The position numbers were made by a program, and so were the translations under genes. From assembly GCA_900617105.1 (NCBI GenBank), contig UYFQ01000173.1, forward strand, positions 1-64,000: 64,000 bases of DNA, in the 5' to 3' direction. Under the pieces are notes generated by a model, which did no database searches, had not been told where the DNA came from, and saw only the letters and a program-made list of their open reading frames with translations. This DNA is from Hydrurus foetidus. Lineage: Eukaryota. Shown here piece by piece: positions 1 through 58,974 of the stretch. Numbering within the stretch: the stretch's first letter is position 1; every line of letters begins with the position of its first letter.

Positions 1-38
1 CACTATCTATCACTTTTAGTGTTAATCCTTTTGCACAA

Positions 39-3000
39 TTGGATCTGATCATCGGACGCAAGTCCCTGAATCAACACAACTTGTTTGTGCTGACGCCGAA
101 ACGTATGGGCTTTGACCCTACGCTAATCGAAACGTCACCCAGCCCAGATGACATCGGTCTACTTCCCTTAAGGGCAGAGTCCGACATCGGTACAGATTCA
201 CATACCGACGTCTGTTGTCATCATAGTGACGCTGTCGGATCGCGTAGTCCTTGTACACAGTGTCGCCTGATTACCGACACTGCTGACAATGGAGACGAAG
301 GTCACTCGAGCACCCACCGTATTCCAACAGTGGGAGAAGAGTGGGGTCCATCTGCGCTATGGACGGGCAGTGGTATTAACCGCCCCCCTTCTGAGACCGG
401 GACGAGAGTGAACACAGTAACACTTAACGCCGCGAGCGTGTTGCCGTGCGGAATCAATCTCAATGGAGATGAGATTGATGATGACAAAACGGATGCGTTC
501 GGTCCGTTTCTTTCTGCATTGATGGAAGACCCTACCCCAACAGGTAGGGCGAACGACGTCATCTCGACAATCACCTTTGGTGGGTCGGAAGCTCTGCAAA
601 CAGCATGCAGAGCATTATGTACCGAATTTATTGACATCTTTCAAGATGAGGTGGCCCGTGAACCGGCCCGTATACCTCCTTTTGATATTGATCATAAGGC
701 GCGGCACAATGGGAAGTACCTGGTAACAGGACCCCGCTCCGCCCCCAATCCTCACAGAAGGAGGCGATTCACAATAACCTTCAGGATCTGATACGGATCG
801 GGGTGGTTGAAAAGTCTAATGCGGTGTACTACAGTCACCCTGTAGTAGTACAGAAGTCACCCGGACAATACCGTGTATGTATTGACTTCCGGCCACTTAA
901 TAACTGTACGGAGTCGGCCAGTTGGCCACTCCCCAGCATTCCAGCAATGTTTGAACGCATTGGCGCTCGTCAACCTGACATCTTTGGGGTTATGGACTTA
1001 ACGTCCGGCTACCATCAAGCACCCCTTACAGCATCAGCTAAAATCCTGACTGCATTCATATGCTTCTCTGGAATTTATCAATTCACTCGATTGCCTTTCG
1101 GCCTCAAACGTGCCCCATCATACTTCCAGGAGATGATGGCCACGGTTGTCCTTGCGGGCCTTTTATATGTAACATGTGAGATGTATCTCGATGATTGCAT
1201 TGTATTTGGTAATGGGCCTGACGAGTTTCTGCAGAGACTTCGTGATGTCTTCATCCGTTTTCGAGAAAAGAATTTATTCTTGAAAGCTAAAAAATGTAAG
1301 TTCGGAGTTACACGCCTCGAATACGTCGGACGTGTGATCTCCAAAGAGGGGTTATCTATGTCGGCTGAGAAAATAAAATCTGTTTTAGATTTTCCTCGCC
1401 CTAAAACCGTTACTGCCCTTAGGGGATTTCTCGGTTTGGCGAACTATTTTAGAGGTTTCGTACCAAACCACTCCAACATAGTAGCACCGTTACATAAAAT
1501 GACGGTGTCTACAACTCATAAACATTCCAGAGTAACTTGGAATGCTGAAACCATTAAAGCGTTTCAAGACATTAGGCAGGCCATTTCTCAATGCCCCCTG
1601 ATGCACTTCATTGATAATGTATCACCAATACATTTATACACCGACGCATCTGATTATGGTGTAGGTGGTGTATTGTTCCAAAAGGTTGGAGATGAGATGA
1701 AACCCATTTCATTTGTGAGTAAGTCACTCACCTTCTCACAGTTGAACTGGTCAACAATCCAGAAAGAAGCTTATGCTATCTACTTGTGTTGTACAAAACT
1801 TGATCCACTATTACGTGATCGCAAGTTTACGATTCACACAGATCATAAAAATCTGACGTACATGAAATCCTCCCCTAACTCGATGGTAGGGAGATGGTCC
1901 ATGGCTCTACAAAAGCTCGATTACACAATCGCATACGTGCGAGGGTCTGAGAACACGGTAGCGGACGCTATGTCTCGCCTCTGTGCTAATCTCTCGGACC
2001 TTGTCATCAAGGTTCAACCAGCCACCACTGGCACAGAACCGGATAACTTGCCGGGCCCGTTTTGCGGCGCCCTCAAGGTCATACCAGAAATGACTGATAC
2101 GCAGCGCGACGCACTCAACATGTGCCACAACAAGTTTGTCGGACACGGAGGCGTTAAACGCACCGTAGAAAAGCTGAAAAGCTTACCCATTGAGTGGGAA
2201 CACATGGTTCAGCACACCCACTTGTTTATACAACAATGTGCGTGCTGCCAGAAGATGAACGCTACACGCGTACCGATACGTGTACACAAGTACGTTACTT
2301 CTGCGTACAAACCTTTCCATGTCTTGAACATCGATTTCATCGGACCCTTCCCCGATGCCTCACACGTTCTTGTCATCATCTGTGCTTTCACACGGTGGAC
2401 AGAACTCTTTTGGTGTGCGGATAATACGGCCAAATCGGCTACCGATTGCCTTCTCCAACACTTTGGAAGATACGGTGCACCCCAAATGATCAGATCTGAT
2501 CGGGGTTCACATTTTGCTAATGAATTGATCAAACAATTCCTAGTGTCAACGGGTACACCCCACAACCTGACACTAGCATACTCTAAACAAGAGAATGCTA
2601 TAGTTGAACGAGTTAATAAAGAAATTAACCGGTACTTACGTTCGTTCCTGTATGATACAAACGACGTGTACCAGTACAAAAACTGCTTACCGTTTATACA
2701 ACGCATTTTGAATTCTTCAATTCACAGCAGTACCAATGCCTCCCCAGCAAGTTTATTGTTTGGTAACCAAATCAATCTTGATTCGGGCATACTTTCACCA
2801 TTCCCACAATTACCGGAAGTGGAAACTTCCGCATCGAAAGTGGTCTGTGAGATGTATCACATCCAGGATACCCTGATTGCCCAAGCACAAACTGCTTTGC
2901 GCACAATGGACGCGGCTCATATTGCCACAAGTCCACAGGATATAACGGTTTTTCCCGTCGGTTCATATGTGTTGGCTAGATACACCACACAACCGCCCAC

Positions 3001-3376
3001 ACGGTTACACACGTTGTGGCGGGGACCGTTTCAAGTGATATCGATTCACAACTCTGATTATACGTTGTTAGATATAACTACGAAGAAACATAAACATCTT
3101 CATATTAGTAATCTTAAACAATTTGTTTTCAATCCGAAACATACGGATCCTGCTGATGTAGCACGCCGCGATTATATGGAATTCTTTATTGATTCCATTC
3201 TTCAGCACCAAGGCAATTCCAGACGCAAAACCCAAATGCGGTTTTTAGTCAAATGGACTGACTTTGATGACTCACACAATACGTGGGAGTCGTGGAAGAA
3301 TCTTCGTCTTACAGACGCTCTTCACACATATTTACGCCTTCACGGCATGTCGAAAATAATTCCGACAGAAAAGTAA
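39..3376 (+). CDS. pol: Gypsy pol (RT, RNase H, integrase, chromodomain) with a frameshift near 700
   Basis: DLTSGYHQ, LPFGL, YLDD; TDAS, TDHKNL; HHCC (CHNKFVGH..CACCQ); DFIGP/SDRG/ERVN; GPF; chromodomain FLVKWTDFDDSHNTWE. The QWEVPGNRTPLRPQS frame links the two ORFs. Confidence 0.95.
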
Positions 3377-3391
3377 GTTCCCAAGGAACGA

Positions 3392-3488
3392 CCTACACAT
3401 TATCTTTTGAAGATTCCTCCTCATTTTTACAACTTTAAGTTGCTTTTCAGGAGGTTTAGTCAGTAAAAATCTGACATAAATGTGTAGG
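3392..3488 (+). ncRNA. Conserved structured cis RNA element (cloverleaf with ENE-like arm) in the Gypsy 3' UTR
   Basis: Four helices; homologous copy with compensatory changes at 39878-39985. Confidence 0.75.
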
Positions 3489-4437
3489 GGAACACTCAAT
3501 GTTACAACACATCTAGGCACTCTCGTTTCTCACTCCCCAAACTCTCACATGTACAAATATCTGTATTTATCGTACGTATTTATTACTGCATTTTTGTATT
3601 TTTTTTATCTTTTTTCTGCATTTTTTTTCTCACGCTTGAGTCATATTTGTTTTGTTACACACTGTAGCTAGAGACTCACCAAGGGAGAGAGGGAGAGAGG
3701 AGAGAGAAATAAGAAAACGAGAGATAAGTAGGGGTAGTGTGGCTCCCTCAGGGTCTGCTACCCCATTCAGCCGATTAGATGCTGTTTCCACCTTAGTACC
3801 TTCGTGTTCACAGCCACGACTATCAGTCACTAGCTAGTTTGTGCTGCTTTGCAGAAGTTACTAGCGTACCTTCTGTTGCATCCCTAACTAATTAGCTCCT
3901 TTTAGCCTTTAGACTTCCCTTCTCTTTTGCCTTCCAAGGTCACAGCGCCATCTTAAATTTGTTGGCAAGCAGCGGTGAAGATGAAGAACGTCGTCGACAC
4001 AAACTCGAGCAGCGACTTTTACTGCTACCGGCTGCGGGCTGATGAATCTCATGACTTTCAGCCGCTGACAGCCCGGGCTACGGGCTGTGTCTTCAAAATG
4101 GCACACCGGCTGCGGGCTACGAAAGTCGATCAGCCCCCATCCCTAAAAATTTTGATTTTCGTATTTTCGAAAAAGCAGAATCCTTATGTGGGTGTGAAGG
4201 ACCAAGGAATTGGGATTCGGCGCCAACTCAATTTTACATTTCTTGGTGTCTTCAGCCTGTATAGTTACGACCGGCACAATACATCCTTATTTTGAAAAGC
4301 GTCTGCGAGGGACTGTTTCCTCCTCCCCTCATTGGCCTGCTAGTTGACAGTGTTTTGAATTTGTGAGATCGCAGACGAAACGGGGATATCGCCATTTTCT
4401 GGCGCTGCCGTCAGTACCCCACGCACTGCCAGGCAAG

Positions 4438-15554: not shown

Positions 15555-16922
15555 TGCAATGTCAAATAAATTTGCAAGAGTGGAGCAAATGAGCTGTACT
15601 CCTGTAGTGGAATAAATCTGTACTTTGTCTTATCTGCAGTCAATGATGTAAATACAGTATACAGTATATCTGCCTGATACCATGACTGTAAAATTTGGAA
15701 TTGCTGGAGTGTCGATAAATTTCAAAAACATTTTGGAATTATCGACACCCACCGAGTTCTCATGAACAGTCTACCAAATGTCATAAAAGTCGTGAGTAGA
15801 AAAATAACGATTTTGGTGCATTTATTTTCTTTATTTGTGAGATGCAAGTTGATTCGTCACATTTTCTGCGCTTTACCTGAAATAGATGATGATCATTTTT
15901 TGAATAGATTTGCTGATTTTTCGATTTGTTCTTTGCATAGAAGTTGAAGACTTCTTTCAGTTTTTGATCAAATAAATTGAACTTTCTTTCTTGTAGGAAG
16001 TTTCGGAGATGTTGTGATGTGTCGTGTCGCTTCTGATTTTCGTTCAACTTCATGTCCGTCAATCAAGTATACTGGAATTCGTCTTCTCCGCTCTCCCCTA
16101 TTTTTTCCGAAGCACATTCTTCGTGTTCTATTTTGAAAGAAGGAAACTGGTTGGTATAAAAATCATCATGAAATGAGTTGTCACTCGCAGTTATTGCCCC
16201 TGTTGTCAGTCTGTCCGACTGAGCCCGCTACCCGCTGTCATAACTGACCAGCAGTATGTTATTGTTTAATAAAAAACCGCGTTATCCGTTATTTGTTGTG
16301 GTTATTTCTCATCTGCTACTGTAAAATCTTTTACCAGCCCATCAACCCAAATCATACTGTTCTCCCAAAAATCATAGGGGGGGGTCTCCAGATTTCTCGT
16401 CCAAATCCTAGAATCTAGAATCCTAAATATGGGTTTCTGGGTGTTTTAACCGACCGAAGGTCGGTGTATTTAGACCGTACATGTGTACGTAATTTGTAGT
16501 GGACTTCAGCAGGGCGGGGCTGTCGGAATAACTAATGAGCTAAGTAACCGTATAAGTTATTACGTATGTACATTTGATGACGTTTCGTACGTCGTGTGCT
16601 GTGTGGTGGTCGCTACTCCACCGGTCCAGGTTCCTTCAACCCAATAACATCAAAATGATGAAAGTGCACCATGTTTGACTGTGCGGGACAGCGCGATCTT
16701 TTCGCCTGTCTCCATGAACGATGTAAGCGATGTTGCATCGTTAATTACCTTAATACTCACACCAGCAGAGCTTTCACCTTGAGCCCGGGAAAGTTGCTAG
16801 CGCACGTGTTGAACCTGCAGAAGGAGCGCGTACCCAGGAAGGATATAGTTGTCCATTCAGTGGAAACTGATCCTTAGTTACGACATAATCAACGAGTTGC
16901 TTTCTTTGCAACCAGTTGCAAC

Positions 16923-18026
16923 ATGAAAGGCAAAGGCCGAGGCCGAGAACACAATACCGCAGGCGGTCGAGCAAACCCTGCTAATGGTGGCAAAGGGAAT
17001 GCTGGCCGCGGTGCGAAGCCTCCACCGAGAACAGGAACGGTAGCCGCGATTGGCGCATTCCTGGATCTTGGAAGAGCGATGAACCATGGTAGCGTAAGCA
17101 CATGGATGAGGAAGTTCCGCGAATATACGCGCGCGAACTACAAGTCCGATATCTCTGAGATATTCGGCAACGAGGGCAAACCGGGTGATTACCCGCAATA
17201 TGTCACTCCAGCGGCAGCCGATGCGAATTTTATGGTATCAACAAAATGGAAGCGAGCATTGGAGCTATACGACAGTAACGTCCTTACTCTGAGAGAGGAC
17301 CGGAAGCAAGTCTTCGGACTAATGCTCGGTCAAATTAGCGAAGCGTCGAAAGCGACAATTCGAGAAGCTGAAACCGGACTTGCAGCGATGACTGCAGAGG
17401 ATCCGCTGCTATTGTTGAGAGCCATCATATTGACTCACCTTTCGGATCCGAAGCTGGGAGCAGATCAGAACCTGCTGAGAGTCAGAATGGCGTATGAGAC
17501 AGTCAAAATGGAGCAGAACGATGTGTTAAAGTACTACTATCAACGCTTTAAAGCGTTGAAATCTGGGTACGAGGACACGATGCGGGCATTAGGAGTCATG
17601 CCCGAGTTCAACGAGGCCATGACCGCCCACAACGAAGTACTCACTGGGATGAAATTTATGAACGGATTGAATTCCGGATACCGGCATTACGTGGAGTACT
17701 ACGAGCACAGGCTCAAAGACTGGCCAGACACTCTCGAGGACGCGTACCTCGAGATGGCCAAGGTCACCCCGAAGAAGTCAGCAGCAGCAATACCACCCAA
17801 CCAGACCAATGTTTTCGCTACGAAAACGGCTGGCGGTGAGAGACCAGCTGGGACAGAGAAAGGGAAAGCTAATGGGAACGGGGGCTGAGGGAAGGGTGGC
17901 CGTACGTCGTACGGCACCCGTCCTGGCAACTGTAATAAATGCGGTGAACTTGGGGACTACTCATACGAGTGTACAGCGGAAAGCCAAGCGGGTGCACCAG
18001 CACCCAGTGGAAAATCGGTAAACTAA
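16923..18026 (+). pseudogene. gag: Copia gag with a premature TGA at 17886
   Basis: The frame continues past TGA (likely from CGA) into a degenerate knuckle CNKCGELGDYSYEC and stops at TAA 18024-18026. Confidence 0.85.
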
Positions 18027-21000
18027 GTAAGATACATTATTCTCCACCCGTACACTCACCCACACCTACACCTGTACATACACCCGCACTTACATTTACA
18101 CACACACCCATACACACACACACCGATCCTCCATGTTTGGCTGATTCCACTAGCGGAATTGAAACATGTGATCATATTGTTTTTAGTGCCAATACATGCA
18201 ATATATATAACATGATTAGAAGTAGACACATCCTGCTTGACACATGTGCTGGTGAGTCGGTTTTCAACGACTCATCCCTGCTGTATAATGTCGAACACGC
18301 ACCCACACCTATGATTGTTAGCGGGGTGAATCCGAAAGGAAAACCGCTAATAATCAAGAAACGTGGGGTGTCGGCGTTCGGCAAAGTGTATTATAGCCCT
18401 GACTGTGCTGGTAACATATTGTCTTTTGGTAATGCTGTACGTGACTGTACTGATGTTAAGTACTTACATGACTATGATTGTTACATAGTGCAAGACGTCA
18501 GTGGAAAATATTTTTATAGATTCTCACGAGATGAGACTATGAATATATACCAATGCAATCTTGACACTATGGTAACTGAATGCATGCCAATGTTAGTTAC
18601 GACAGTAGAACAGAATAAGAAGAAGTATACAGTGAGAGAAGTCAGAGACGCGTCGTTAGCTAGAGACTATCAGCGTAGACTAGGATACGCTAGCGCAGCA
18701 CAGACTATTAAGTTGATATCCCAAGGGAATTTGACTAATAGCAAAGTGACTGCGCGAGACGTACATATAGCCATTGATATATGGGGACCGGACGTGGGAT
18801 CCCTTAAGGGGAAGACCACCAGTCATCAGGCCAAGTTAGAAGAGAAGCTACCACTGATAGGTATTGAGTACAAGACAGAACAAATTATGTACGTAGATAT
18901 AATGTTTGTCAACCAAGTACCATATCTAGTATCAGTAGTGCAGCCCATCGAGTTCCTATACGTTAGCAAGTTAGCTAACCGAGAGCACAAGAGCATATGG
19001 AACAGCCTAAAGACTTCATTAGCAAGCATGGTAAAGTACAGATTCAGAGTTAAGATGATCCGAGTAGACGGCGAGGGTGCAATCAATACAGAATGGTTTC
19101 ACAACAAAGTCGGCTTAAGAGGTATAGTACTAGACGTTACCGGAGCCGGAGAAGCCGTAGCCGTAGTCGAGCGTAAGATACGACACATAAAGGAGAGAGT
19201 AAGATCAGTAGTCAATTCTCTACCGTTCTCATTAAATGAGAAATTAGAAGTGTGGTTAGTTAAGTATGCAGTCAGTAGAATTGTATTAGCACCCACACGT
19301 AACTCACTTAATCACATCAGTCCACGAGAGAAATTAACTGGAAGAAAGTTAGACGTAGATAAGGAGATTAAACATGGTTTTGGTGATTATGTCCAAGTGC
19401 ATAATGATGTCATTGATAACTCTACCAAACCAAGAACAGCCGGGGCCATAGCACTTATGAGCTCCGGTAATCTAGAAGGTTCATGGTACTACATGCTGTT
19501 AGCTAACGAACGTATTGTTAAACGTACTAAAGCGACTGTACTACCTATGCCTGATGAAGTGATATTACACTTGAATGTACTAGCTTCAAAGAGAAAAACT
19601 GCCAATGTTAAACAGCCTGTATTTGAGAATAGTAGTCACATTGTATTCGATGATGATGACGATGTTGAAGATGATAGTGCTTACATTGGTGATGTTGAAT
19701 ATGAAACTGTCGATGAAAATGCTAACGCAGATTACACCGATGAGATTATTGAAGATAACGATCACAATGATAACGAAACACATCTTGAATCACAACTCGA
19801 TATGTCTGATGAAAATCACCCACCCACATTAGATGAGTATGTAGATGACACACTATATGTGAGTGACACTACATACGACAATGACGAACTATATTATGAT
19901 GACACACATGATGACACACATGTACCCCAACCTAAATATGATCAAGCACTGATAGATGACATATTTGGCATAAGTGATGATGAAGATGACTTTGCTGATG
20001 TAACTGTACACACTGAAGTATTCACACCACCTGCCACCATAATTGAAACCGCATATGACCCACCTGTTGTAAACTCACCCGTGTTACGTAGAAGTGGTAG
20101 AAATCACCAACTTGGTAAATGGGATAAGAAATATGTTGGTAATCTGTTCTACAACCACACTCACCTGTACAAAATGACTGTTAATGAGGGAATTAATAAG
20201 TTAGGGGTGATAGCTGTTGATTCCATTACATCTGAATTGAAACAAATGTGTGATAAGAATGTTTGGGAAGGTGTAACTTATGAATCCCTCACCCCACAAC
20301 AAAAACGCACCATTATACCTAGTAGCATGTTCTTGAAAGAAAAGTATACTGCTGATGGTATGTTTGAAAAACTGAAATCTAGACTAGTAGCCGGTGGGCA
20401 CTTACAAGATAGAGATGTTTATAACAATGGCGCCTCACCTACTGCTAGCACATCTAGTGTATTCATGCTGACTGCAATTGCTGCTAGACAGAAGCGTGCT
20501 GTCGCCACTGTTGACTTCCCCGGTGCATTCCTGAATAGTGATATGCCGCTGACCGGCGACCATGTTGTATACATGCGTCTGAATAAACAACTGACTGCTG
20601 CACTAATTAAGATTGATGCAACATATAACAAATACATGAATAACAATGGAACATGTATTGTTAAACTTAAGAAAGCTTTATATGGATGCGTTGAATCTGC
20701 TAAACTATGGTATGACAAACTATCCAGTGATTTGATCAAATTCAATTATACTGCTAATGAATATGACATATGCGTATTCAACCGAACTGAATCGGATAAC
20801 ACACAAACTTCACTCGTAATTCATGTTGATGATATGATAATCACTGCTTCAAGTGAATCTCGCGTTGATGATGTTATAAAACAAATTGAAACTATATATC
20901 CCGGTCTAACGAAACATAGAGGAAAAGTTTAAAATTACATAGGCATGACTTTCGACTTCAGCAAGCAAGGCTGCGTTAAGATGACTATGGAGGGCTTCGT

Positions 21001-21895
21001 GCAAGACCTCATTGAGGGGTGTAAGGATATGCCGGGCACGGCAAACACCCCTGCACGAGCCAATCTATTCACTATACCTGACGATTCTGACTCACCCTTA
21101 CCTGATAATCTGCGTGGGCGTTTTCACTCTATTACAGCGAAGCTACTCTACTTGAGTAAGAGGACGAGGCCAGACATTCTGACTGCCGTAGCGTTCCTGA
21201 CAAAGAGAGTGCTGAGGCCCCAAAGGGACGACTACGACAAGCTGACCCGTACGATACAGTACATACGGGGTAGTCAGCATACGGGTATAACATTTGAAGT
21301 ATATGAACCTATTCATGTTATTGCATATATCGATGCATCCTTTGCCATACATCCCGATATGAAAAGTCACACAGGCAGCGTAATCACCCTTGGGAAGGGA
21401 GCGATCTACGCCAAGAGCGGTACTCAGCGCCTCATGACAAAGTCCAGCACGGAGGCCGAGCTAGTCGCACTCAGCGACGCCGCCAACCAAGTTCTGTGGA
21501 CCAGGAACTTCCTGGAGTGCCAGGGACACCCTCAACCTCCCGCCTTAGTGTATCAAGACAATCAGTCTACGATACAGCTCATACGTAACGGTCGCTCGAA
21601 CAGCGAACGTACGCGGCACGTTGATATACGGTATTTTTTCCTGCACGACAGAATCAGTACAGGCGATGTAGACATTGTGTACCTACCTACTACTGACATG
21701 ATTGCAGACATTCTAACCAAGCCACTGCAGGGTGAATTGTTCAAGAAGCTCAGGAAGGAGCTGCTCAACACTTCACCACCTACCCTCACGTACGCAGAAG
21801 GATGCAAGACTGAGGACCGTACGGACTCCGCGCCGACACCCGTACGCACCAAATTCAACCCACGATTTCCATACCCTACGTCCAAGAAGAACTAA
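18018..21895 (+). pseudogene. pol: Copia pol with an in-frame TAA at 20930
   Basis: LLDTCA protease; YQRRLGY..WGPDVGSLKGKTT (CoDi-type integrase N-terminus without canonical HHCC); KSRLVAGG, KKALYG, HVDD; SSTEAE, ADILTK. Confidence 0.93.
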
Positions 21896-21973
21896 TACCT
21901 ACCGACGAAGAATCCATCCGACATGCTACCCCCTCCATCTTACCCTTCTACAACGCCGCTGTCCGCTTCAGCT

Positions 21974-22136
21974 GAAGACTGAACACTCAAGACCCCAAGA
22001 CTCCGTCATTCCTACTGCCCCCACATCCGACTCTACTACCCCATCAGCGCGCGTCATGACGAAGACTGACCACTCAAGACACCAAGACTCCATCATTCCT
22101 GCTGCCCCCCTCCATCACTTTTCTTCTACCCCATCA
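21974..22136 (+). repeat. Two diverged ~87-bp tandem copies in the Copia 3' UTR
   Basis: GAAGACTGA(A/C)CACTCAAGAC..CAAGACTCC.TCATTCCT.CTGCCCC at 21974 and 22061. Confidence 0.85.
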
Positions 22137-25100
22137 AGTGCGACTCAAGAAAACCCTGACAGAGACATAAAGAGCGAGGACCGTGGACCCAGACCCAAGA
22201 CCCGATTCCGGAATCAGATAGTATAACAAGTCAGAAAATTATTTTAAGTGTAATCTTTTGCGTGTTACATAAAGTCTTTTTAGAATTGTTTAACTCTATG
22301 CTCATTCGGATCAGTCAGACCTTATGATACTAATATTACCCTGCATGCAATAAATTATCTAACGTCACAATTAAGGTCAACCCCACCATTACCCTACTTC
22401 CCTACAATATAAAATCATGTTATGATACACCATTTGTGAAGCTTCAAGTAAACGGAGCATTTTTGAATTCTATTGCGTTTTCATTCGCGTACACCAACCC
22501 GACGACTCACGCCATAGGGGTGTGTCGGAATAACTAATGAGCTAAGTAACCGTATAAGTTATTACGTATGTACATTTGATGACGTTTCGTACGTCGTGTG
22601 CTGTGTGGTGGTCGCTACTCCACCGGTCCAGGTTCCTTTAACCCAGGAACATCAAAATGATGAAAGTGCACCATGTTTGACTGTGCGGGACAGCGCGATC
22701 TTTTCGCCTGTCTCCATGAACGATGTAAGCGATGTTGCATCGTTAATTACCTTAATACTCACACCAGCAGAGCTTTCGCCTTGAGCCCGGGAAAGTTGCT
22801 AGCGCACGTGTTGAACCTGCAGAAGGAGCGCGTACCCAGGAAGGATATAGTTGTCCATTCAGTGGAAACTGATCCTTAGTTACGACATGGGCTCCTTCGA
22901 CGAGGTATGCATACTCGAAAATGTCATCACACATGTTCACATCGACGTTGGATATCCTAGGTAGCTTGAACTTCCGTCCCGATGTTGCCTCTATGAACTA
23001 GAAAAATGAAGATGCGATTTCCTGTAATCTTTGTTTCTGAAAATTCACTTTTTGTAGAATGCCTCTCAGGAAGCGTGGTATAACTGACGTGGCGGAGTCT
23101 AAAACAGGCAGAGATCATTGACGACTTGCTCACCAGGTTCGATTTTAGACTTCCATCGCTGCAACCTCCTCAATTCTTTATTTTATGGTTGAAAAATGAT
23201 CACTTACGACTCAATCACTCAAAAATCACTCTACAACTACTCAATAAAAATGGTAGCGTCCTTCAGGTGAAATGACCTTGGAACATTTTAAAGATGCGAT
23301 TATTACACAGATGCATAATTCTAATGCTGGCCGACTGTGATGCTCTTCCAGCCTCGAGAGCAGAGTTTGGACGCATCAGGTGAGAAAATTCTTGATAAAT
23401 CAGATATGAGTATTTCAGCTCCGATTTGACTTCTGAAAATTGATTTGATCTTAGAATCTACCTGACAATCCATGACAGAAATCGCGGAGAAAGGAGCTGT
23501 GCCTAAAAAGTCAGTTTCGGAGAGAAGAGAGCGGAGAGATTGGAGCGAAGACTTTAAAAAATACGTTACTATCTAATGAACCGAAGCGACATTATGATTC
23601 ATCATATCATGTTTTGTATTATCTTCTTCTCTATATCTGTAAAAGCTAAGAAAAGTTCGTTATACTATAACTGACACTTAAACTTTCACGAACCCCGCCA
23701 GGAGTATTCTGCTGGTTCAGTTGCGGTGATTTTCTTCTCTGCAGAACATGGTCTCGAATGCTCTGGACATAGATTCTACATTTGTTAACAAGAAGCTCAT
23801 TAGCCTCTGCAATCGCAAAACTAATGGAATAGGTTTTCATAACATTCATCATCTAAGTTATGCAGCAGTAATCTTACGCCTCAAAGCCTACGGCAGTTAC
23901 GGTCGGTTCGTTAGGCCGTTCCTTAACGTTATCCAAAAACGTCAAATTTGCGTCTTTTCTGGATAAGATTTTACCGGAAGGCATTCCATAAGCATCCAAA
24001 AAGACGTATCCAAAAAAAAAAGTTTCTTGGTTTTTTTTGGATGGTCGATTTTTCCCAAAAAAGAGGCCTGCTTTCTAGATGCTTTCCTCCTATCTAAAAT
24101 CATGTTGCGGGCAACCTGAGTCAGGACATTTCCCAACATTTCATCAGAAATCATCAACAAATGGTGAAGGCAAAGGCTGTAAAGCCTCCCAAAAAAGCTG
24201 CCGCTGTGAAGCCCAAAGCTGTTAAGCCGCCGCCTACGCTAATCTCTCATTCTTTGCTGGGTTCGCCATCGACGAGATAGAATACAGCAACAGTAAGAGA
24301 TGGGAAGCCCATCCTAAACCCCAGCGAACAGAAATCCTTCAAGTTATGGATATCTGAGATCAAGCAAATACAAGGGCTTTTCATATGTCAATGTGGTCTA
24401 CTGATTCAAAGTCAATCGTGCTGCACCCAAAGTGCCGAAGAGGCTTTATTCGTCCGAGAATTTCCAATCAACTATGAGAAATTCTGTCGTCATCCTATCC
24501 TGGACGCTCATGTCAAAAAGATTCCTTCCATCTACTTGACGGTTGCAACGAGCACAGCTTCTGAAATTCGCAACGGCGAGAAGTTGAGGAGGAAATATAG
24601 TTCGATGAAGACCTACATCAATAGCACTCTTACGACTATATATAAAAGGTAAATCCATCTTTGAAGTCCTATTCATTACTTATTACTAAACAAAGGTCAT
24701 ATCTACTAGGCTAATGAGGAACGGAATTCCTTCCGGGAAGTCAGAAGCAGACGTGCTTGGTATTTGATTTGGTATCTGCATCTTATTATTTTTCCAACAT
24801 GAAATGCTTATTTTTTTCAACCTGATTGATGTCATCATTATTACTCCAAATCGCAACGAGGCGAAGCCCTTGCAAGTTTTTTTTAATAATATAGTGAATC
24901 TTATTATCATTTGTAAGTGAATCTTCCTCATCATCACTATCGGAGTCCCATTGAGCCCACCACTTCCTTCTCTCAGCACTGCGTTTCAAGTACTCCGATG
25001 AAGGTGGAAACTTAAATTCCTCATCTTCCACAAATCGATCCATGTTTAAATTGTGATGAGGATGAGTAATTGAAAGATGATGTGGTCAATCATTTCGAAA

Positions 25101-27849: not shown

Positions 27850-29896
27850 ATGGGGAACAAAACTTCCTCTCCGTTCCCTACTTATGAATCTGCCTGCAAC
27901 CATTTAAACCCCATGGAAATCAGTCACCTGAAGAAATCCTTCAAACTTATAAGTCATAACAGTGAGACGATAACTTTATCTAGTTTCTCTCAGGTAAGAT
28001 GTTCCTATCACTAGTTAGCGATTATTGAAATGAATAGTGTGAGACGAATAACCTGCCACGAACTACCTGATCTGTCGCCAAATTCAATCTTTGTATGAGT
28101 TATGGCGATTTGAGTAATATGCGGCTATGAATGTTGTCCTGAACCCTTCTTTAAAATGTACAGCACTGCACAGTTGCGGCTCCATCTTCGCAGTATGTAA
28201 GGAAGCATGTTCTGCCGAGACTTTTTGCTACCATGGACTCGAAAAGAGATCACGTTATCGATTTCGAGGAATATGTCTGCGCAGTTGCTCTATTTCGTAT
28301 TGGCAGCACAGAAGACAAAATAAAAAGTGAGTCGCACTTCTATTTGAAGTGAATTTGCCGCATGCACGTAACGCAACCTATTCAAGCCGCAACGGCTGTA
28401 CAGAGCATTCCACTGGTCGGGCAGCTTCAGTATTATGCTAAGTTAGAATCATTACATATCCGTCGGTATCCAAAATATTAGGTCATCTTCGCCAATTCGA
28501 AAATAGTCGTTGATGATGTCTGAAATTTATCACACTGAGGTCAACGAGTTCATTCTAACAATATTGCTTGACGCCTAGACGTCCTCTATTCACATACTTA
28601 CTTCCTCTCTTACGTTCTTCTACACTAAATTCAGTTTTATTTCTCATGTACGAGCCACTGAAGGGGTCTCATCTAACCAGGTACGCTATGCTATGCTATT
28701 CTATTCTATCCTACTCTATGCTACTCTATTTTATTTTATGCTATACTATTTTATGCTATTCCATTCTATTCAATGCTATTCTATCTTATTCGATGCTATC
28801 CCATTCTATGCTATACTGTTCTATGCTATACTGTTCTATGCTATACTATGCTATTCCATTCTATTCTATACTATTCCGTTTTATACAATACTATGTTATG
28901 TTATGCTATGTTATGCTATTCCATTTCATACAATACAATGCTATGCTATGCTATGCTGATTGTCAGTCACACGAATTGGCATGACATTATATGTGCCCTG
29001 TCCATATTGTATGCGCTCCGACATCCCTCTGTTAGCATTTAAATCAGCTAGCTTCTGCTCGTAATTATCATTTTATATCTACATTGCACCATTTAGTCTC
29101 GTTACATTCCCTAGCCTGCTGCAATTTACCATTTTGTACTATACAATACTGTACTGTACTGCACTGTACTGTACACATCTAATTCTTCCTCAAATTCTAT
29201 CACTCAACAACAACTTGCAGGGAGAATGTGCGCAAGCTGATCGTGGACGCCACCATCGCTACGCAGAACAAAGAAGTGCCAGCAGCCACTCTGGAGTCGT
29301 GGATACACGTACGTACGCGATGAATGACGCACTACATCATTCTTTCTTTCATTTATCTTCGAGCGCTTCAATCCAGTTATTGGTATCGTGCTTTGTGTTA
29401 TTATCGCATCGTGTTGTCTTGTCTTGTCTTGTCTTGACTTGGCGAAACGTTTCATTGTGTGTTGCAGCGTGCCTTCATGAAACGGAGAAATGACCCAAGA
29501 TGCACAGAACAGTCAATCTTATGAAAGAATCTCCATGTCATGATAAGACTATGAAACCCATGAGAAGAAACAAATGTTCACATCTGGCTACATCTGACGT
29601 ATCCTCGATACCCTCCCTTGTGTAGGATCAGGAGGAGCTCTCCCTGTGCATGACCGACATGGCCCTGCAACAGGTACGTCAAACAGAATGCAACGGATTC
29701 AATTCAGTCTATCTCCTCTCCTCTTGTTTCACCTACTCCATCTCCCTCGCCATCTCCATCTCATCTTCTCTTTTTCCTTTTTTAGTTCGCCACTGTTGAG
29801 TCCAAATTGGATTTGTCTGAGTTCATTAACTTCGTCAAGGTAGAGGGCAGTCTTCAAGGGTTGCTGCTACTGCTCCCCAGTGCCATCGATAACTAG
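27850..29896 (+). CDS. N-myristoylated EF-hand protein (calcineurin B/NCS-like), ~198 aa, 6 exons
   Basis: MGNKTS start; DSKRDHVIDFEEY EF-hand; GSTEDKIKILFLMY; last exon KLDLSEFINFV ends in TAG at 29894-29896. Confidence 0.8.
28686..28956 (+). repeat. Degenerate pentamer satellite (CTATG/CTATT/CTATA) in an intron
   Basis: Clear 5-bp periodicity. Confidence 0.95.
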
Positions 29897-32271: not shown

Positions 32272-33158
32272 GCTAGACTCCGCAAACCCTAGCCGCGGCT
32301 AGGCTTCAAACCAAATCTCTATTTGAAGACAGAGTTGTAAATAGTAGAAGCAGCCTCCAGTCTCCAGTTGGAGTTGGTTACACATCGTTCATCGTTCGGC
32401 GTCTCCTCGTTGACCTTCCGCTTTATAACTCTTGGCCGTCCATCGGGACGTTCCTGTCTTGTTCTACCGTAAATGTTAGTGTGGGCTGTATGCTTCCAGC
32501 GAGACTGCTCGATCCAATTAAGAAGAACTTGGTATTGGGTGGGGCGATTCTACGAGCCCGCTAGCGGTGGATGTGCTCCGTATGTTGTGTGGGAAATGAA
32601 AATTAGTGTGTTTCTAATGCTTTTTATTTTTGTGTTTTTATTTACAGACAATTATGTGCTTGGATGTAATTCTCTCAATTTGTTACATTCCTGTCTTATA
32701 CTGTGTCTTTCCTGAGGGAAAGCACTAAATTGGTTAACTGTTAGTGGAACAAGCAGAGTTAGTTTTGCTAATTCCGTTGGTCGCGGAGTGGCGACAGAGT
32801 CAAGACCTCTTGCGAATGGTTTTTTCGCTGACGGTTCAATTACAGCTTCAAAATTTGCTGTTGCACCTTGCATTTTGTGTGTTGTTGATGCGAATGCTGG
32901 TTCTAGTGATATTTGCTATCTGTGATAATTTTTACTGTATTTGTCGTCAACTGTTGTGATTGCAACAAATGGTATTATATTGGGGATTGTCCGTGATTGG
33001 AATATCCAATCGGTAGGTCCATATTTACAAATATAGTTGGTATTTCTCTGTCGATGACCTCATGGAACTCTGAGGGTTTAGGCATTAAATATGTTGGTAT
33101 TTGTCCCCTAAATGCGAAACCAACTCGATTTGATTTCGATGATGTGATTCGATTTCAA

Positions 33159-33299
33159 TGGGTGACCCCGGGAAAGAAAAAATCTAGGATTCTATCGAAA
33201 ATCTAGACCCCCCCCCTCCCCCCCCCTAGTCTAAATTCCAGCTGAAAGTCTATTTTTTCGAATAGAATCCTAGATTCTTTCTTTTCAGGGGGTCACCCA
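33159..33299. repeat. ~140-bp imperfect palindrome with a central C-run
   Basis: TGGGTGACCCC..AATCTAGGATTCTA..TAGAC is inverted against GTCTA..TAGAATCCTAGATT..GGGGTCACCCA. Confidence 0.9.
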
Positions 33300-33709
33300 A
33301 TGATTCGAAAGACTCGAGACCAACACGTGCGTGTGATTCCACGTACAAAAAACTTGCCAAGGAATAAACGAGCCCTGTAGCCGTCTGGGGCCCTCGGGAC
33401 CTTGGACCCCATTCCGTCTGTTTGGGTTCATACCCAAACACACTGTAGACTTCTAGGTAGACTCCTAGCACCCTGGTAGGATGTTTCCCTGCTCATATAT
33501 AGTTCAACAACCCCTTTGTAAGCCTAACCCAACACCTCCTAGCCCTCTAGCCTAGTTCCTTCAGGGCCACAGTGACGTCACTTCCCACCAGCTTCTATAG
33601 TTTCCTAGTGTTCATTCGTGTTTTTCGCCGTCTTCCAGTGCTTCGCTGGAAAGTTTAAGAAATCCCTCGTGAAGAGGACTTTCCAGAGTTCCCTCTACTC
33701 AGAGATCGA

Positions 33710-36700
33710 TTGTTTTTGGCGGAGCAACGTGCTATTCGAGAGGAACTCGAAAACCGCTGCCCAACTCCGGAGATTACCTACGCCGACGACGATCCAGATC
33801 GTCCGCCTGACAATCCTCCGTCTAATCCATCAACTTTCACCGACCCACGTCCGTGGACAGTAGCTCCTACAGTCCTACGTCATTCTCTTGATAGAGAAAC
33901 CGCGAGTTCATCGCTTTATAACGCCTCTAATTACTACTCTACTCCTTCCACACACCCAGCACTCTCTTGCGTAACCCCTGCACCTTCAGCTTTTAAGCGA
34001 AGTCGACCGGTTTTCAAACCGAGAACAGTTGAGAAGCGACTTCCAGCAAGTTCGCTCCGCTGTATACCGAGGTTTCAACACGAAACCTTGTCGAATTTGT
34101 TGGAAACCAACGAATTTCTGAGTGTTACGCCTGTTTCTGTTTTGCAAACTCGACCAACTTATAAGTCGACATTCACACCGGTTCAACAAACCGAGTCAAA
34201 CCTAAGCAATCCACTTAGAGAGAAAAACGTTCCGGGGTTATATCCCGTTGAGCGTGGAAACGCTTCTTACGAGGCGTCGGGAGATAGTTTTCTATACGAA
34301 AATCTCCAGAATATAATTCCAACACTTCGTGTGGAATTATTGACTGAAAACACTCACCCTATGGTGAAGAAGAACCCTGTTCAGCCTTTACGGCGTGGAT
34401 CTAACCCGCAAACAAGGCGGAGAAACCCCTTGATGGAGTCGGAGTATGAGAATTCAACTTTGGAAGAAAATTCTGATTTACCCGCTTCATATGCGGATGA
34501 TAACCCTGATGAGGGAGATATGGACATGGAATCCTTTCCTTCTGATCAACATCTGACTGATCTAGAAGAGTGTGGAGAGATTCCATACGACGCCCAAAGT
34601 CCTTTTCAGGAACTTGTTGAAACCGAACCGTCGATTTCGAGTAGCTCGTCGAGCTCATCCAGCGTCATTGCTGTACCGCGGACTCCTGAACCTCGCGTTC
34701 CCGATCCTACCCTGCTTAACGCAGCAGTCGCACCCATCGTTAGCGATGGAGTACCACGTGAGAAACCACGTGAGCAACAGAGACAGATACCTCTCTCGCC
34801 CGTCGTCATCGACGTAGTACCCAACCCACAACCGAACCCTCAGTACAATATGGAACAGGTTACGACGGCGTTGAAGCAGACAATGACTGGCGGTTTGAAC
34901 CTACAGAAACCGTTATTCATCATTGATACCCCAGAGATAACTGGAGAACAAGCTGCCCAGTTTCAGAACCAAGCCAATCAATGGCATGAGAACTTCCTGG
35001 TACACCAGGTGGTGGTTAACCCTGCCACCTATGTGGTACAGTATGCGTTCGCGAGCGATCCAGAGTTCACTCTCATCCCTCCAAGCAAATACTCAACATG
35101 GTACAATCATGTTACAGTCAAACAGGCTGCCCAAATCATAACCAAATACTTTGGCGACAGAAATGATATTGGTAGAACACTCGTCGAGAACTTCTCACGA
35201 CTTGAAATCTCTTTCTGTTACACCAACGCAGACATTGAGAGAAAATCCTTCATGGCTCTCAAGGCGTTAACAACGGTCTATGAGAATACCCAACCGATCA
35301 CTCCGGCGCAGCATGCTGCACTGATAGTTACGATCGAGAAAAAACTGAAACCGGATAGTCAGCTTAAAAGCGACTATTTCGCGGCTCGTGGCAACGAGGG
35401 TAAACCTATACCGAACGAAACGTGGGAACAAGCGTTCACTCGTCTTGGTAAATGCATCTTCAATGTTAGGAAGCTCGTTGAACGAGTTGCTAATTATGGC
35501 GATACCTCCGCTATTCATACTCTGTTTAGCAAATACCAGGAGCAGGAGACTCGGCAGGCCAGAACACCGATAATCCCTGAACAGCGTTCTTACGCTGCCG
35601 CTGTCTACCTCAAGTCAGCGCTGGCGAACTCACCAGCTAACCCTCAACCTTCTGCTGCACCTGCACATGCTCATGCACACGCATCCTCACCCAGTGCAGC
35701 AGTGCTGAGGAGACCAACAACTGAATCAATAATTCAGTTGTTGCCGCAACCAGCGCCAATCCCATGTCGCTCATGCGGTCACACTGGACATGAAGTCAGA
35801 CTCTGTCCAGTTCTGTTTCGCACAGACGCCAACCATAGTGAACTCCACCTTCAATGGAAAGATTCAACAGCGGGTAAGATGTGGCATTCATATGGCTTCG
35901 AAGCTTATGATGATGGAGCCCAACTACCAAACCATGCTGTCCGCTACCTGGTCAAACCAGTGTCCGAGTTTAGATACTCGATGCTCCAACTACCCAACAA
36001 GCGTGCTCGTTTTGACAATGGAGGAGCTACCGTACCTACGTTACCCGGTCAACACGACCCCGCTAACAATGCACAGTACGCAGAAACACGCAGAAACAGA
36101 AAACAAGGTAAATCTGTTTCCTTAAACGCTATTGTTGCAGCCTCTATAACCAGAATAGAGATTGATTCTAACTTCTTATCTTCCTGGATTTTTATTAATC
36201 AGCGAAGTATAGTCAAGGACGGGGTGCGGGTCCAAGTGCATACCAGCCCCAACAACCACCACCATCCCACCCTTAGGGCTGAACGAGTTCTGGCAAAGGT
36301 CCTACTCGACACCGGGAGTCTCCCTGGCGACTTTATTAGTCAAGATTTTGTAATTAGTTTAAATGCTCAAGATTTTGTTTATACTTCTTCTAAAGCTTTA
36401 ACTATATGTTCGGGTCTAGATAACACATGTTATGTTAGGGACCAAGTAATTGATATTGGAATGACTTTTGTCACCCATAATTTATTAATTAATACCATTT
36501 TCTTAACGGTGCGGATTATTCCAAACACCATCGACTTAATTCTGGGTCGAACAACTCTTAAGAAATATGACTTCTTCGAGAAGACTCCCTACGAAATAGG
36601 GAGACCTAATATGGAGAACTCCTTCGAAAGAATGAAAGTTTTCTTATCTGCTGAGTGCATTCCGTCGGAATGTGTGGGCAAGAAGGATGATTTGGTATGT

Positions 36701-39700
36701 CCTCATTCTGGTAACAGTACCATGGCTTATCACAAAATAGACTCAAACAGAGTCGCTAACTGTTCTGATGTCGGATGCTCTAGTCAACCAAACGCCGCTG
36801 GGGTCGAACCTACGCGTAACAGTTGTAACTATGTATCAAACCATAGTGGTGTCATACGTACTCGTACGTACACCCTAGCACATTTATGTGAAATGCCAGA
36901 AGGTACTCCAACAGCTACTACAGTGGAAACACCTAGTGGTATCATAATCTCTTCTGACGAGATAGATAATGATAAGACGGATACATTTCGCCCATTCTTA
37001 CCTGAACGCGTTCAGCAGACTGCTCCGCCTCCAAGGCCAGAGGACTTTTTGTCACAGATAAAAATTGATGGAACGGAACACCAACAATTTCTTATTAGAC
37101 AACTCTGTCTTAAATATGCAGACATATTTAGTGATAAGCTAGCAGTTAAACCGGCTAGACTTCCCCCCTTTGTTATAAAGGTCAATAAAAGGGATTGGGA
37201 ATGTTCTAAAAATAGAACAGCCGTTCGTCTCCAATCAGTTCGAAAAGAACGAGAGATCAAACGTGCCATCGATGAGATGTTGAACTCGGGAGTCATCGAG
37301 GAATCGAATGCGGTTTATTATAGCCATCCTGTCATAGTACAGAGAACAGCTGACTTGTTCAGATTTTGCATTGACTACCGAAATCTGAACAAATGCACAC
37401 AGGCTTCCAGCTGGCCGCTTCCGAACATTCGAGCTCTTTTTGAGAGAATCGGCCATCAACAGCCAGTCATATTCGGAGTTATGGATTTAACTTCTGGTTA
37501 CCATCAGGCACCTATGGATCAAGGATCAAAGGTCCTGACTGCGTTCATTTGTTATTGCGGTGTATACCAATTCACCAGACTCCCCTTCGGTCCTCGGAGA
37601 GCCCCCTCTTACTTCCAAGAGATGATGGCGACTATTGTCCTTAATGGACTCATCTACATTTCTTGTGAGATGTACTTAGACGATTGTATCGTTTTTGCAC
37701 GAGGCCAGGACGAGTTCCTGGAGAGACTAGAACGAGTCTTTCGACGTTTTCGCTGTTTTGGTTTACTGCTTAAAGCAAAGAAATGTAGATTTGGGATGTC
37801 TCAGATCGATTATGTTGGCAGACAGATCTCTTCTCAGGGCATATCAATGTCAAAAGAGAAGATTGAATCTGTCCTAAATTTCCCAAAACCCATGACACTT
37901 ACTTCTTTACGAAGTCTGTTGGGCTTGGCGAATTACTTCAGGAATTTTGTTCCTTTTCATTCCGACATCGTTGCACCCCTTCAGAGGATGATTGACCCTA
38001 AAGGGAGGAAAAAGTCAGCCCTTCAGTGGACTACGGAAGCAGATAAGGCTTTTGTTCTCATAAGACAAGCCATATCCCGCTGTCCGCTGCTACACTTCTT
38101 AGACGAAGTGTCACCCATCGAGTTATACACCGATGCCTCTGACTACGGAGTAGGTGGAGTATTATTCCAAGTAACTAATTCTGTCAAGAATCCAATCTCA
38201 TTTGTGAGTAAGTCGCTTAGCGCAACACAAGTTAAATGGTCTACCATTCAAAAGGAGGCCTATGCAATATATTTTTGCTGTAAACAACTTGACTCTCTTA
38301 TAAGAGATAGAAAATTTATCATCCATACTGATCATAAGAACTTAACCTTCTTAGGTCAAGATCCATCAGCAATGGTAAATAGATGGTCGATGGCTCTCCA
38401 AGAGCTAGACTACACTGTGTCCTATATAAGTGGACCCAAGAACTTCATTGCCGATGCACTGTCTCGGTTATGTCCTAACTTAACACAGTTGGTGATTCTT
38501 GACCCACCTACTAGAGTGGAGGAAATTGATGTTCATATATCAGCTCTACATGAAGTTGCACCTGTTACCGAGTTACAACTCGAAGCTATAGAGATGTGCC
38601 ATAATGCCATGGTGGGACATGGAGGCATTGCTCGTACCCTCGATAAACTGTCAAGTATAGATGAGGAATGGCTCGACATGACATCCCATGTTAGAGACTT
38701 CATCCGCAATTGCGCATGTTGCCAAAAAATGAGTGTGATCAAAATCCCTGTTCACATTCATAAATACACAACGTCTACTTATAGACCGTTTGACACAGTC
38801 AACATCGACTATATTGGTCCGTATCCGGATAATGGATATGTTTTGGTAATGATTTGTTCATTCACAAGATGGACTGAGCTTTACTGGTGTGTTAACAACA
38901 CTGCACAATGTGCATGTGAATGCCTTCTACAATTCTTCGGTAGATTTGGTGCACCAAGCATGATCCGATCGGATCGTGGATCTCATTTCATGAATGAAAT
39001 CATACGTGAGTTCTTACTCCGTACAGGGACCCCCACAACTTAACCTTGGCATACTCAAAGCAGGAGAATGCTATAGTGGAAAGAGTTAATAAGGAAGTTA
39101 ATCGACACTTACGTGCTTTTACATTCCACTCTACAAATCTCGAAGCCTACAGGCTTTGCCTGCCTTTCGTGCAGAGAATTATCAACAGTTCCGTACATTC
39201 AAGTACGGGAGCTTCACCAGCTAGCTTGCTGTTTGGAAACCAACTAAACCTTGATAGAGGTATTCTTGTTAGGTTTCCAGATCAAACACAAGTTCCGACT
39301 CGTTCGTCGAAGGTGATTGCAGACATGCTGCTCATCCAAACGCAACTCAACGATTTAGCGATAAATAAGTTGAAGACAACAGATATTAACCGTGTAGCCG
39401 TTAATACAGAACCTAGAACTATTTTTCCAATAGGTTCGTACGTTCTCACTCTCAACCCTAGAGGTGCTGAGACTAGATTGCACAGTATGTGGCTGGGCCC
39501 ATTTCTTGTTGTAAGCTATGATAAAAGTGAATACACTATTAAAAATCTTATCACGAAGAAAAATCGTGATGTTCATGCAAGTCAGTTGAAACCGTTTAGG
39601 TTCAACCCAACTTCCCAATCACCGACTGACACAGCTCGTCGCGACTACATGGAATTTTTTATTGAAGAGATCGTTTCCCACGTTGGAAATAAAAAGAAAC

Positions 39701-39882
39701 CTTCTACAATGAAATTTTATGTTAAATGGTTGAACTACGATTCAAACCATAATTCATGGGAACCATGGAAGTCCATGCGCGCCACAGATCAACTTCATAC
39801 GTATCTGCGCAATAACAACATGTTGCACGTTATTCCAAAAGAATTTCGAAATATGACTCCCAATACAAGGGAAGAACCGTGA
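33710..39882 (+). CDS. Single-ORF gag-pol with a 1-nt frameshift near 39030; start codon uncertain (first ATG at 34361)
   Basis: CRSCGHTGHEVRLC, LLDTGS, YLDD, TDAS, HHCC, DDE core, GPF, chromodomain FYVKWLNYDSNHNSWE. Confidence 0.95.
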
Positions 39883-39985
39883 ATGATATCTTTTGAAGAT
39901 TACTCCTAAATATTTTTTTTACCTCAATTACTTGAGTTTTTTTTTACGGAGGTTAGTCAGTACAAATCTGACATAATCATTCACG
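39878..39985 (+). ncRNA. Second copy of the structured 3' UTR RNA element
   Basis: Same junction sequences and helix layout as 3392-3488. Confidence 0.75.
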
Positions 39986-46236: not shown

Positions 46237-47399
46237 GATTTACTTGTGGAGTGGATGTCAAATTGGCTTGATTACAAGGCGAAAGTTGTCGACGTGGATA
46301 CCTAGGAGTTTAGGATCCCAGATAGAAATCTAGAAGAGGGGGGGGGGGAGAATCCTCCAAATTTCTATCGGAATCCTAGATTTTGAAGTCTAGAATAGGT
46401 TTAGACAGTCTAGATTTGAGTTTTTTGGGTGTTTTTGTAATCAACGTAATAAGGCCACAATTCAAGGGAATGATCGGATTTCCGCAGAAATCGTGTTTTC
46501 GTGTTTGGGTGCAACGGATAACTGATACAGTGATCCCTGACTTGTTGGAACCAAATCACTTGAAATGTCCTTTATACTTCTAATATAATTCGACTGCCTT
46601 ATCCGAAGGGGCGTTGAGTCACCAGGCGCGCTTTCCTGTGATCAGTGGACCGCTTTGGATGAAGGGTTGAGCTTTGACGGCACAAGCGCTTCTTAATTAC
46701 TTGATAAAGAAATATGCGATGGTAGTTGTGGTGGCAACAGCGACAATTCAATTCTATCTTATCAGTTGACGAATTTAAAACGTGGACGAATTTGTATCTT
46801 AAAACGAATTTGTATCTTTCTGGAAGGATTGTCGTACGCATCACTTCAACGGTATTCAAAACATACACAATACAGGTACGCCATCAGATGGTTCGTACCG
46901 GCGCCGAAAAGCTACCGGCGACCGGTGGCCTAACCACTATACGGCACGAGGCTGGTGATGACGTCACCGTGGAAATCAATTAAATTATAGCGTAAGTACG
47001 TGGAATGCCGAACATACCCCTTGATGCGTGGCATCCGTTAAAGATTATCTCAGGAATTTCGTGGATCCGCGCCCGTAAAAAATCGATGGTGCTTCGGTCC
47101 CCCCCAGTAAAAAAAAATGTTTTCGTGGCCGCGACTATGCGTAGAATACAGCGATCGCTCTCCGAACTTCAGCACAACATACAGACACAGCACGCGCCCC
47201 CATGCCTCTCGAGTGAACTCTTGCACCAGGTGAGCCAATCTTGATAACCTTGTTTCTGTTTACTGGAATATGACAAGCCGCAATCGTCCCGGCGGGAAAA
47301 TATATTTGACAACCCGTGATCTAACATCACCAAGCAAAACCTGGGGCCTGGAAGTCCTGATCCGGTTTCCCTGGTGCAGAGGATTGGGCGGGGTGGCCA

Positions 47400-58271: not shown

Positions 58272-58974
58272 TTCAGATTCTCTCTGGCCAAAAACTCTTT
58301 GGGCTTCTCTCACGCAGTGATCGCGACTTCGCTGCAGTAGTTATTTCTTTATGATCGGATTTCCGCAGAAATCGTGTTTTCGTGTTTGGGTGCAACGGAT
58401 AACTGATACAGTGATCCCTGACTTGTTGGAACCAAATCACTTCAAATGTCCTTTATACTTCTAATATAATTCGACTGCCTTATCAGAAGGGGCGTTGAGT
58501 CACCGGGCGCGCTTTCCTGTGATCAGTGGACCGCTTTGGATGAAGGGTTGAGCTTTGACGGCACAAGCGCTTCTTAATTACTTGATAAAGAAATATGCGA
58601 TGGTAGTTGTGGTGGCAACAGCGACAATTCAATTCTATCTTATCAGTTGACGAATTTAAAACGTGGACTTGAATTTGTATCTTTCTGGAAGGATTGTCGT
58701 ACGCATCACTTCAACGGTATTCAAAACATACACAATACAGGTACGCCATCAGATGGTTCGTACCGGCGCCGAAAAGCTACCGGCGACCGGTGGCCTAACC
58801 ACTATACGGCACGAGGCTGGTGATGACGTCACCGTGGAAATCAATTAAATTATAGCGTAAGTACGTGGAATGCCGAACAGGGAACGATAAACGTCTCCGA
58901 TAAAATTTTACGATAAAATATTTTATCGGTTTTCAATTAATTCTACCGTATTTCGTGTTCGGTGGCCCCTTTTA

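Follow-up and report, generated by a model that had tools for sequence, protein, structure and literature searches.

A covarying four-way-junction RNA element past the pol stop of Gypsy retrotransposons recurs, circularly permuted, in the 3' UTRs of a clade of Marnaviridae-like viruses

Two chromodomain Gypsy retrotransposons in a 64,000-nt stretch of Hydrurus foetidus DNA (contig UYFQ01000173.1, hereafter the window) carry, just past the pol stop, a structured and covarying RNA element built around a four-way junction, which is found at the same site in about 30 Gypsy families. What is new here is that one clade of RNA viruses carries this four-way core in its 3' UTR in circularly permuted form. 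Our best guess is that the element protects the RNA that carries it, and we place a probability of roughly 0.55 on its acting as an ENE-like clamp on the poly(A) tail that would slow deadenylation.

The first copy (3392-3488) lies 3' of the pol frame of Gypsy A (698-3376, stop 3374-3376), and RNAfold returned for it exactly the layout described in a sequence-only reading of the window, with all named stems in place (-29.1 kcal/mol, z -5.10, 0/200 shuffles as good). On the plus strand, P1 (3392-3401 with 3479-3488; pairing kept, sequence free) is followed by a conserved AU (3402-3403), by P2, a 2-bp hairpin (3404-3412) whose loop L2 ends in GA where the P4 loop has 7 nt, and by J2/3 (AUU, 3413-3415), the 5' side of a lower U.U tract. 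The P3 arm (3416-3454) comprises a stem (3416-3421/3449-3454), an upper U-rich internal loop (U5 at 3424-3428, U4 at 3444-3447) and an apical stem (3430-3442). J3/4 (UUUA, 3455-3458) supplies the 3' side of the lower tract and an A present in all parsed copies, P4 (3459-3475) has 5 bp and a 7-nt UA-handle loop (3464-3470), and a second AU, a bulged A (3478) and the 3' strand of P1 complete the element (3476-3488). A purine tract (3726-3737, plus strand) stands about 250 nt beyond, before the inferred start of the 3' LTR at 3738.

The second copy (39878-39985, plus strand) belongs to Gypsy B and holds the pol stop (39880-39882) inside P1. It folds alike (z -3.88), and its outer and apical stems differ in sequence and still pair, as the same reading had proposed. 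Both copies sit 3' of the stop of a pol with reverse transcriptase, RNase H, integrase and chromodomain, and each pol, that of Gypsy A (3-3376) and that of Gypsy B (33659-39882), is spread across two overlapping frames. The minus strand of the element folds equally well (z -6.27), so folding alone cannot tell which strand acts; it is the sense strand that carries the U tracts and G-U pairs. Fold and model searches found no copy in the third Gypsy of the window, Gypsy C, whose pol (49530-55583, minus strand) has an A15 run past its stop and no cloverleaf. Gypsy C appears nested in an element at 46470-58879 that has 99% identical terminal repeats and a Copia-type reverse transcriptase (47880-49169). 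The window further contains a Copia-type element with 98% identical terminal repeats (16516-22817), as well as two long inverted repeats and a 10-nt tandem array (33155-33303, 58973-59464 and 28656-28967).

The conserved AU at 3402-3403 can pair with 3476-3477 (P1a, with P1 stacked on P4), which covariation favours, or with 3413-3414, which folding energy favours. In one Gypsy lineage and in 6/9 viral copies, the AU 5' of P2 and the AU 3' of P4 switch together to GU and AC, which suggests that they pair with each other and stack P1 on P4; J2/3 would then face J3/4, with an A-U pair and successive U.U appositions below P3. Under a nearest-neighbour model the register with a free lower tract costs 4.4 kcal/mol relative to the first-described one, and every copy can form either; that the register might switch upon tail binding is speculation.

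To survey relatives, Gypsy loci were gathered by their pol protein only and not by the element. Genome bins yielded 18 pol loci, eight of which reach the 3' UTR, and the element was present in seven. These 18 contigs (L003-L020) encode a eukaryotic Gypsy integrase within bacteria-labelled bins, two of which contain 14 Copia-type reverse transcriptase matches; bin contamination is likely. Metagenomes contributed 48 pol loci, 41 with about 130 nt or more of UTR. Among these, a model built from nine other sequences recognized the element in 30/41 (E no higher than 0.01), and with a broader model, whose training set included many of the same loci, the number rose to 37/41; two of the remaining four look diverged by eye and two are without it. 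By model the element was thus found in 44/49 usable 3' UTRs, in families whose pol ends are 36-58% identical to that of copy A. L024 and L060, judged by eye to be diverged copies, scored weaker than E 1 and were excluded from pair counts together with L066 and L078, which have no usable pol. On the pol tree, absence of the element requires three changes, and three Gypsy lineages are without it. A context-free search of five bins returned 11 full matches, comprising six known copies, four new ones 3' of a pol end and one that precedes a purine tract at the start of a contig, and additionally one truncated copy. The models, applied to at most 150 candidates per bin, gave no match in 3/9 bins.

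The element starts within 10 nt of the pol stop in 22/50 copies (median 13), and the distance ranges over 4-110 nt in Gypsy and 21-364 nt in viruses; from element to purine tract, Gypsy copies span 28-318 nt. In many copies besides that of Gypsy B (L027, L040, L045, L057 and others) the stop lies inside or beside P1, and in 16/50 it is 4 nt from the junction; P1 there pairs with coding sequence and would be opened by a terminating ribosome. Stop-codon readthrough was rejected because both distance and codon vary. Around the first copy (3200-3700), three runs of the host organism contain thousands of variant contigs at very high depth, and Gypsy A is probably a high-copy family. Sequencing runs containing the element include glacier or freshwater metagenomes.

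Comparison across families bore out the claim of a conserved, covarying element. When 29 families were aligned by sequence alone, 87.4% of cells paired, compared with 33-44% in slid controls, and both sides changed in 18/24 pairs. RNAalifold alone recovered the four-way junction, with P2 reduced to 2 bp; of the CTT/AAG stem of the originally described small hairpin, the comparison backs only two base pairs. When changes were placed on the pol tree for 48 copies, with a parser that demanded P2 pairing and picked the P3 register by fit, all were coupled at P2 (3 and 5 events), P3 (7 and 7) and P4 position 3 (4), and P1 position 3 was coupled in 8 of 8-9 events; unrelated column pairs averaged 0.25. 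Within the host's own runs, the 97-nt element contains four common variant sites and the following 166 nt contain 24. Two of the four convert the apical U-A pair to G-C at matching depths (contigs, unphased), one host run has a single-base loss at 3465, and one RNA-library contig disrupts the apical U-A pair and the first P3 pair. The runs consist of contigs that carry no ends, strand or level, and three of the four RNA runs hold small pieces only.

The permuted form was found through a P4-arm pattern, which had a single match among viral contigs, in the 3' UTR of a picorna-like genome (L081). The rest of the core, outside the search pattern, follows downstream, with P3 serving as the closing stem and P1 as a closed hairpin (z -4.52). 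The capsid of this genome has 8B38 and 6SHL as its best solved relatives, both tied to Marnaviridae papers; members of that family have protist hosts and, in the cases described, a poly(A) tail (PMC7996518). Among 80 relatives gathered by capsid, 56 have a UTR, of which nine (eight distinct) bear the permuted core and 47 do not. The carriers are 9/10 members of one clade (FastTree support 100), and 0/46 UTRs outside the clade, many of them short, contain the core. In four distinct carriers the core lies between the stop and a group-typical hairpin, and in 15/20 non-carriers with that hairpin the gap between stop and hairpin is at most 17 nt, too short for the core. This arrangement suggests that the core was gained by insertion within the carrier clade.

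Six more viral copies fold individually (z -2.1 to -4.3), and pairing is kept through compensatory changes between viruses whose capsids are about 50% identical; in L092 the first two P4 pairs, invariant in Gypsy, are exchanged for other pairs. The acceptor-like stem of the viral form is loop-closed or reduced to 2 bp. One carrier (L083) shares an exact 24-mer with the Gypsy locus L029, overlapping the search pattern, and 16-17-mers outside the pattern with L003, L017 and L077. A single regular expression recovers 5/9 viral copies, the other four having been identified by separate inspection, scans and folding; the MAFFT alignment of viral copies is poor near long inserts and did not enter the counts. 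In two wider pattern scans, 5/47 and 5/30 matches had the whole fold, all of them in this viral clade, and the other 42 and 25 matches were rejected since the rest of the fold was missing. An earlier pattern scan gave two matches, rejected as half matches, another gave none, and a scan of viral contigs by a pol-based pattern produced 45 pattern matches and no relative.

The same viruses have further structure in their 3' UTRs. A second element (L095-L162, e.g. L137:5161-5302), in 25/56 UTRs, consists of a short CG-closed hairpin followed by UAUAUAA; the loop of this hairpin could pair with a CUUC in a downstream stem, and none of the loci tested matched an Rfam family. L083 (5590-5649) and L084 (5520-5600) are without the CG-closed hairpin and have in common another structured segment 3' of the cloverleaf, possibly a pseudoknot.

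The U tracts agree with the ENE-like loop of the original description. In all 52 parsed copies the upper loop has a run of at least four U on its 5' side, and on its 3' side at least four U in 43/52, the remaining nine having a G-interrupted tract. A G stands at most 2 nt 5' of the 3' tract in 24/29 families, and C-G pairs flank the loop on both sides, so that its polarity is not discriminating, which counts against a clamp. The lower tract in Gypsy places U opposite U next to the junction in 48/48 copies and runs for one to four appositions before C-G pairs begin; in viruses, where the upper loop is missing, it has 4-7 U and lies immediately 3' of GG in 7/9. Both groups therefore have a U-rich internal loop in a stem (upper loop in Gypsy, lower tract in both) with G-C pairs beside it. 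Judged by eye, a UG(G) bulge or loop follows the CC in 6/9 viral copies, and no 3-4-nt bulge or pocket of the dENE type is constant in Gypsy. Downstream of the element the longest A run is 2-7 in the 26/30 copies in which a purine tract was found, and with no encoded A tract downstream the poly(A) tail is the likely partner. The element occupies a 3' UTR site in Gypsy and viruses alike; tails were seen only on some relatives without it.

Loops L4 and L2 fall into three types, namely a 7-nt loop with a GA-ending L2 (23 copies), a helix-extended loop with an xUAA L2 (17) and neither (11), and 10/11 of the last bear an extra small hairpin in P3. The types of L2 and L4 agree in 49/51 copies, and by eye in viruses, a match without significance since only 3 and 2 independent contrasts underlie it (p 0.25 and 0.5). 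The extra-hairpin type recurs in three distinct pol lineages, a hint of module swapping. The proposed T-loop stood in part: a UA-handle signature (U1 and A5 on a G-C closing pair, two extruded bases) is seen in 23/51 copies as a 7-nt loop and in 17 more with an inserted helix, so that 28/51 copies have another loop. T-loops usually carry a UNR or GNR turn (PMC2615604), and position 2 is A in 23/23 of the 7-nt loops, with no such U-turn at positions 2-4. Nor did the tRNA-like class survive comparison, for an open acceptor stem of fixed length stacked on the T arm is missing (the Gypsy stem is bulged and variable, the viral one closed or just 2 bp long), position 3, which in a tRNA pairs with D-loop G19, may be A, G or C opposite one and the same partner loop, and ARAGORN returned no match. 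The element is neither a tRNA-like RNase P substrate nor a canonical T-loop (PMC2615604, PMC4810234).

That an LTR retrotransposon and an RNA-only virus share the core implies a role that depends on the RNA alone or on some host factor. It makes Gag packaging, reverse transcription, nuclear export and RNase P unlikely, and stability and translation are what remain; given the viral copies, the packaging and tRNA-type processing envisaged earlier are not supported. In the clamp that we favour, U-A-U triples would hold the tail within the P3 arm, at two U-rich loops in Gypsy, as in double ENEs, and at one longer loop beside G-C pairs in viruses. A U-rich loop with adjoining G-C pairs is the published ENE signature (PMC7583470), ENEs are known from retrotransposon 3' UTRs and dicistrovirus genomes (PMC12501189, PMC7583470), and an ENE protects Evade retrotransposon RNA (PMC12501189). 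In MALAT1, A-minor contacts come before the triples and involve a G of the 5' strand (PMC4836648, PMC11411715); with the same polarity here, the tail would follow the GG-U strand as far as the junction and stop there. More tentatively, stacking of P1 on P4 and docking of the P2 and P4 loops might form a compact core that blocks the helix where the last A of the tail ends. The dENE helix terminates in a pocket (PMC13541005), a part that the cloverleaf could play here, and this capping of the tail end is held with less confidence than the clamp. The permuted order, which tolerates a partner binding in trans, counts for a clamp. Against it, freeing the lower tract carries the energetic cost given above, the agreement of L2 and L4 is backed by few contrasts, three Gypsy lineages are without the element, and many Gypsy copies have only one or two appositions in the lower tract, compared with the 3-5 triples typical of known helices. 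Moreover, the viral form being without the upper loop, conservation is highest in the junction and not in the part that resembles an ENE.

That last point is what recommends the main rival, a 3' translation enhancer in which a tRNA-shaped core would bind the host ribosome or an initiation or termination factor and the U-rich arm would be accessory. The junction rather than the upper U loop is common to virus and transposon, the arm order is tRNA-like, the loop types vary jointly, the element is often close to the pol stop, and there are precedents for viral tRNA-shaped elements binding host factors (PMC4810234). We nevertheless consider it unlikely, since the elbow-like loop is replaced in more than half of the copies, often by long inserts, the distance to the stop varies widely in both groups and the U tracts are left unexplained. 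Less probable again is a site for a host RNA-binding protein that stabilizes the RNA or brings tail-extending enzymes, a strategy reviewed for viruses (PMC12846552). Near-invariant junction bases and the same host-side logic as the clamp would suit it, but there is no candidate protein, and an RNA partner is the simpler match for symmetric U.U tracts flanked by G-C pairs.

The other readings fare worse. A compact multiway junction right after the stop codon could in principle block a 5'-3' exonuclease and leave a stable 3' fragment, as xrRNAs do. The action of xrRNAs depends on threading of the 5' end, however, and here the 5' strand enters via P1 in Gypsy and via P3 in viruses; there is no Rfam match either, and this reading is very improbable. 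We give a similarly slim chance to a Gag packaging, dimerization or reverse-transcription signal with a convergent or passenger viral look-alike: the purine tract is near, but compensatory changes in the viral copies are not expected of a passenger, and exact shared words of 24 and 16-17 nt speak against convergence. Least probable of all is a cleavage element, whether a self-cleaving ribozyme or a mascRNA-like substrate of RNase P/Z. Circular permutation and an invariant junction are common among small ribozymes and both are found here, but a cut would presumably take off the tail and 3' signals needed by both genomes, viral contigs extend at least 100 nt beyond the element, one RNA-library contig (which could be DNA) runs through it, and the closed or 2-bp viral acceptor-like stem and the empty ARAGORN result count against a tRNA-type substrate.

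The poly(A) clamp thus remains our preferred reading. The fold is without an Rfam family (no match at the gathering threshold, Rfam 15, for both copies and 16 related loci), and no published description was found in the literature searched, in which the primary ENE surveys are represented by review. According to that review, the surveys drew on plants, fungi, slime mould, stickleback and dicistroviruses (PMC7583470), which makes overlap with published ENE lists unlikely. A well-supported RNA fold whose permuted form is common to two unrelated RNA parasites points to exchange of cis-acting RNA between retrotransposon and RNA virus, and the element may have moved between them; such sharing also narrows the function to a need of both. 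The roughly 30 Gypsy families and eight distinct viral versions form a natural variant set, and a poly(A) clamp, if true, would represent a new architecture in the ENE family and a compact, naturally varied mRNA-stabilizer candidate.

Compared with known systems, our best guess is that the element works like a dENE, as a putative member of that class with a differing architecture. Like the dENEs of plant and fungal transposons (e.g. rice TWIFB1) and the Evade ENE, it lies in a transposon 3' UTR, has two U-rich loops split by a short G-C-rich stem and has the tail as presumed partner. By review descriptions, however, a dENE is an extended stem-loop with a bulge pocket, whereas here there is a four-way-junction base, two extra hairpins and a permuted form. 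The viral version resembles the single-domain ENEs of KSHV PAN RNA and dicistroviruses in having GG-U(4-7) opposite a U run and CC, mostly with a small bulge close by, and in being set in a picorna-like 3' UTR, but its loop is closed by one A-U pair and topped by a cloverleaf instead of a hairpin. MALAT1 and MENbeta likewise combine a U-rich loop with a tRNA-like element (mascRNA) in the same 3' region; theirs are separate, with an encoded A tract and an RNase P cut, whereas here the U-rich arm is within the cloverleaf, there is no A tract and the acceptor-like stem is closable. With the tRNA elbow, UA-handle and T-loop the element shares a 5-bp G-C-closed stem, U1 and A5, a 2-nt bulge and a small second loop of matching type, and it differs from them in its A at position 2, the lack of a constant GG in the partner loop and of covariation at position 3, and a helix that is often inserted. 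The s2m motif, a structured 3' UTR module in unrelated RNA viruses, is similar in its distribution; to our knowledge it has another fold and is shared among viruses, neither with a retrotransposon nor in permuted form, as the four-way core is here.
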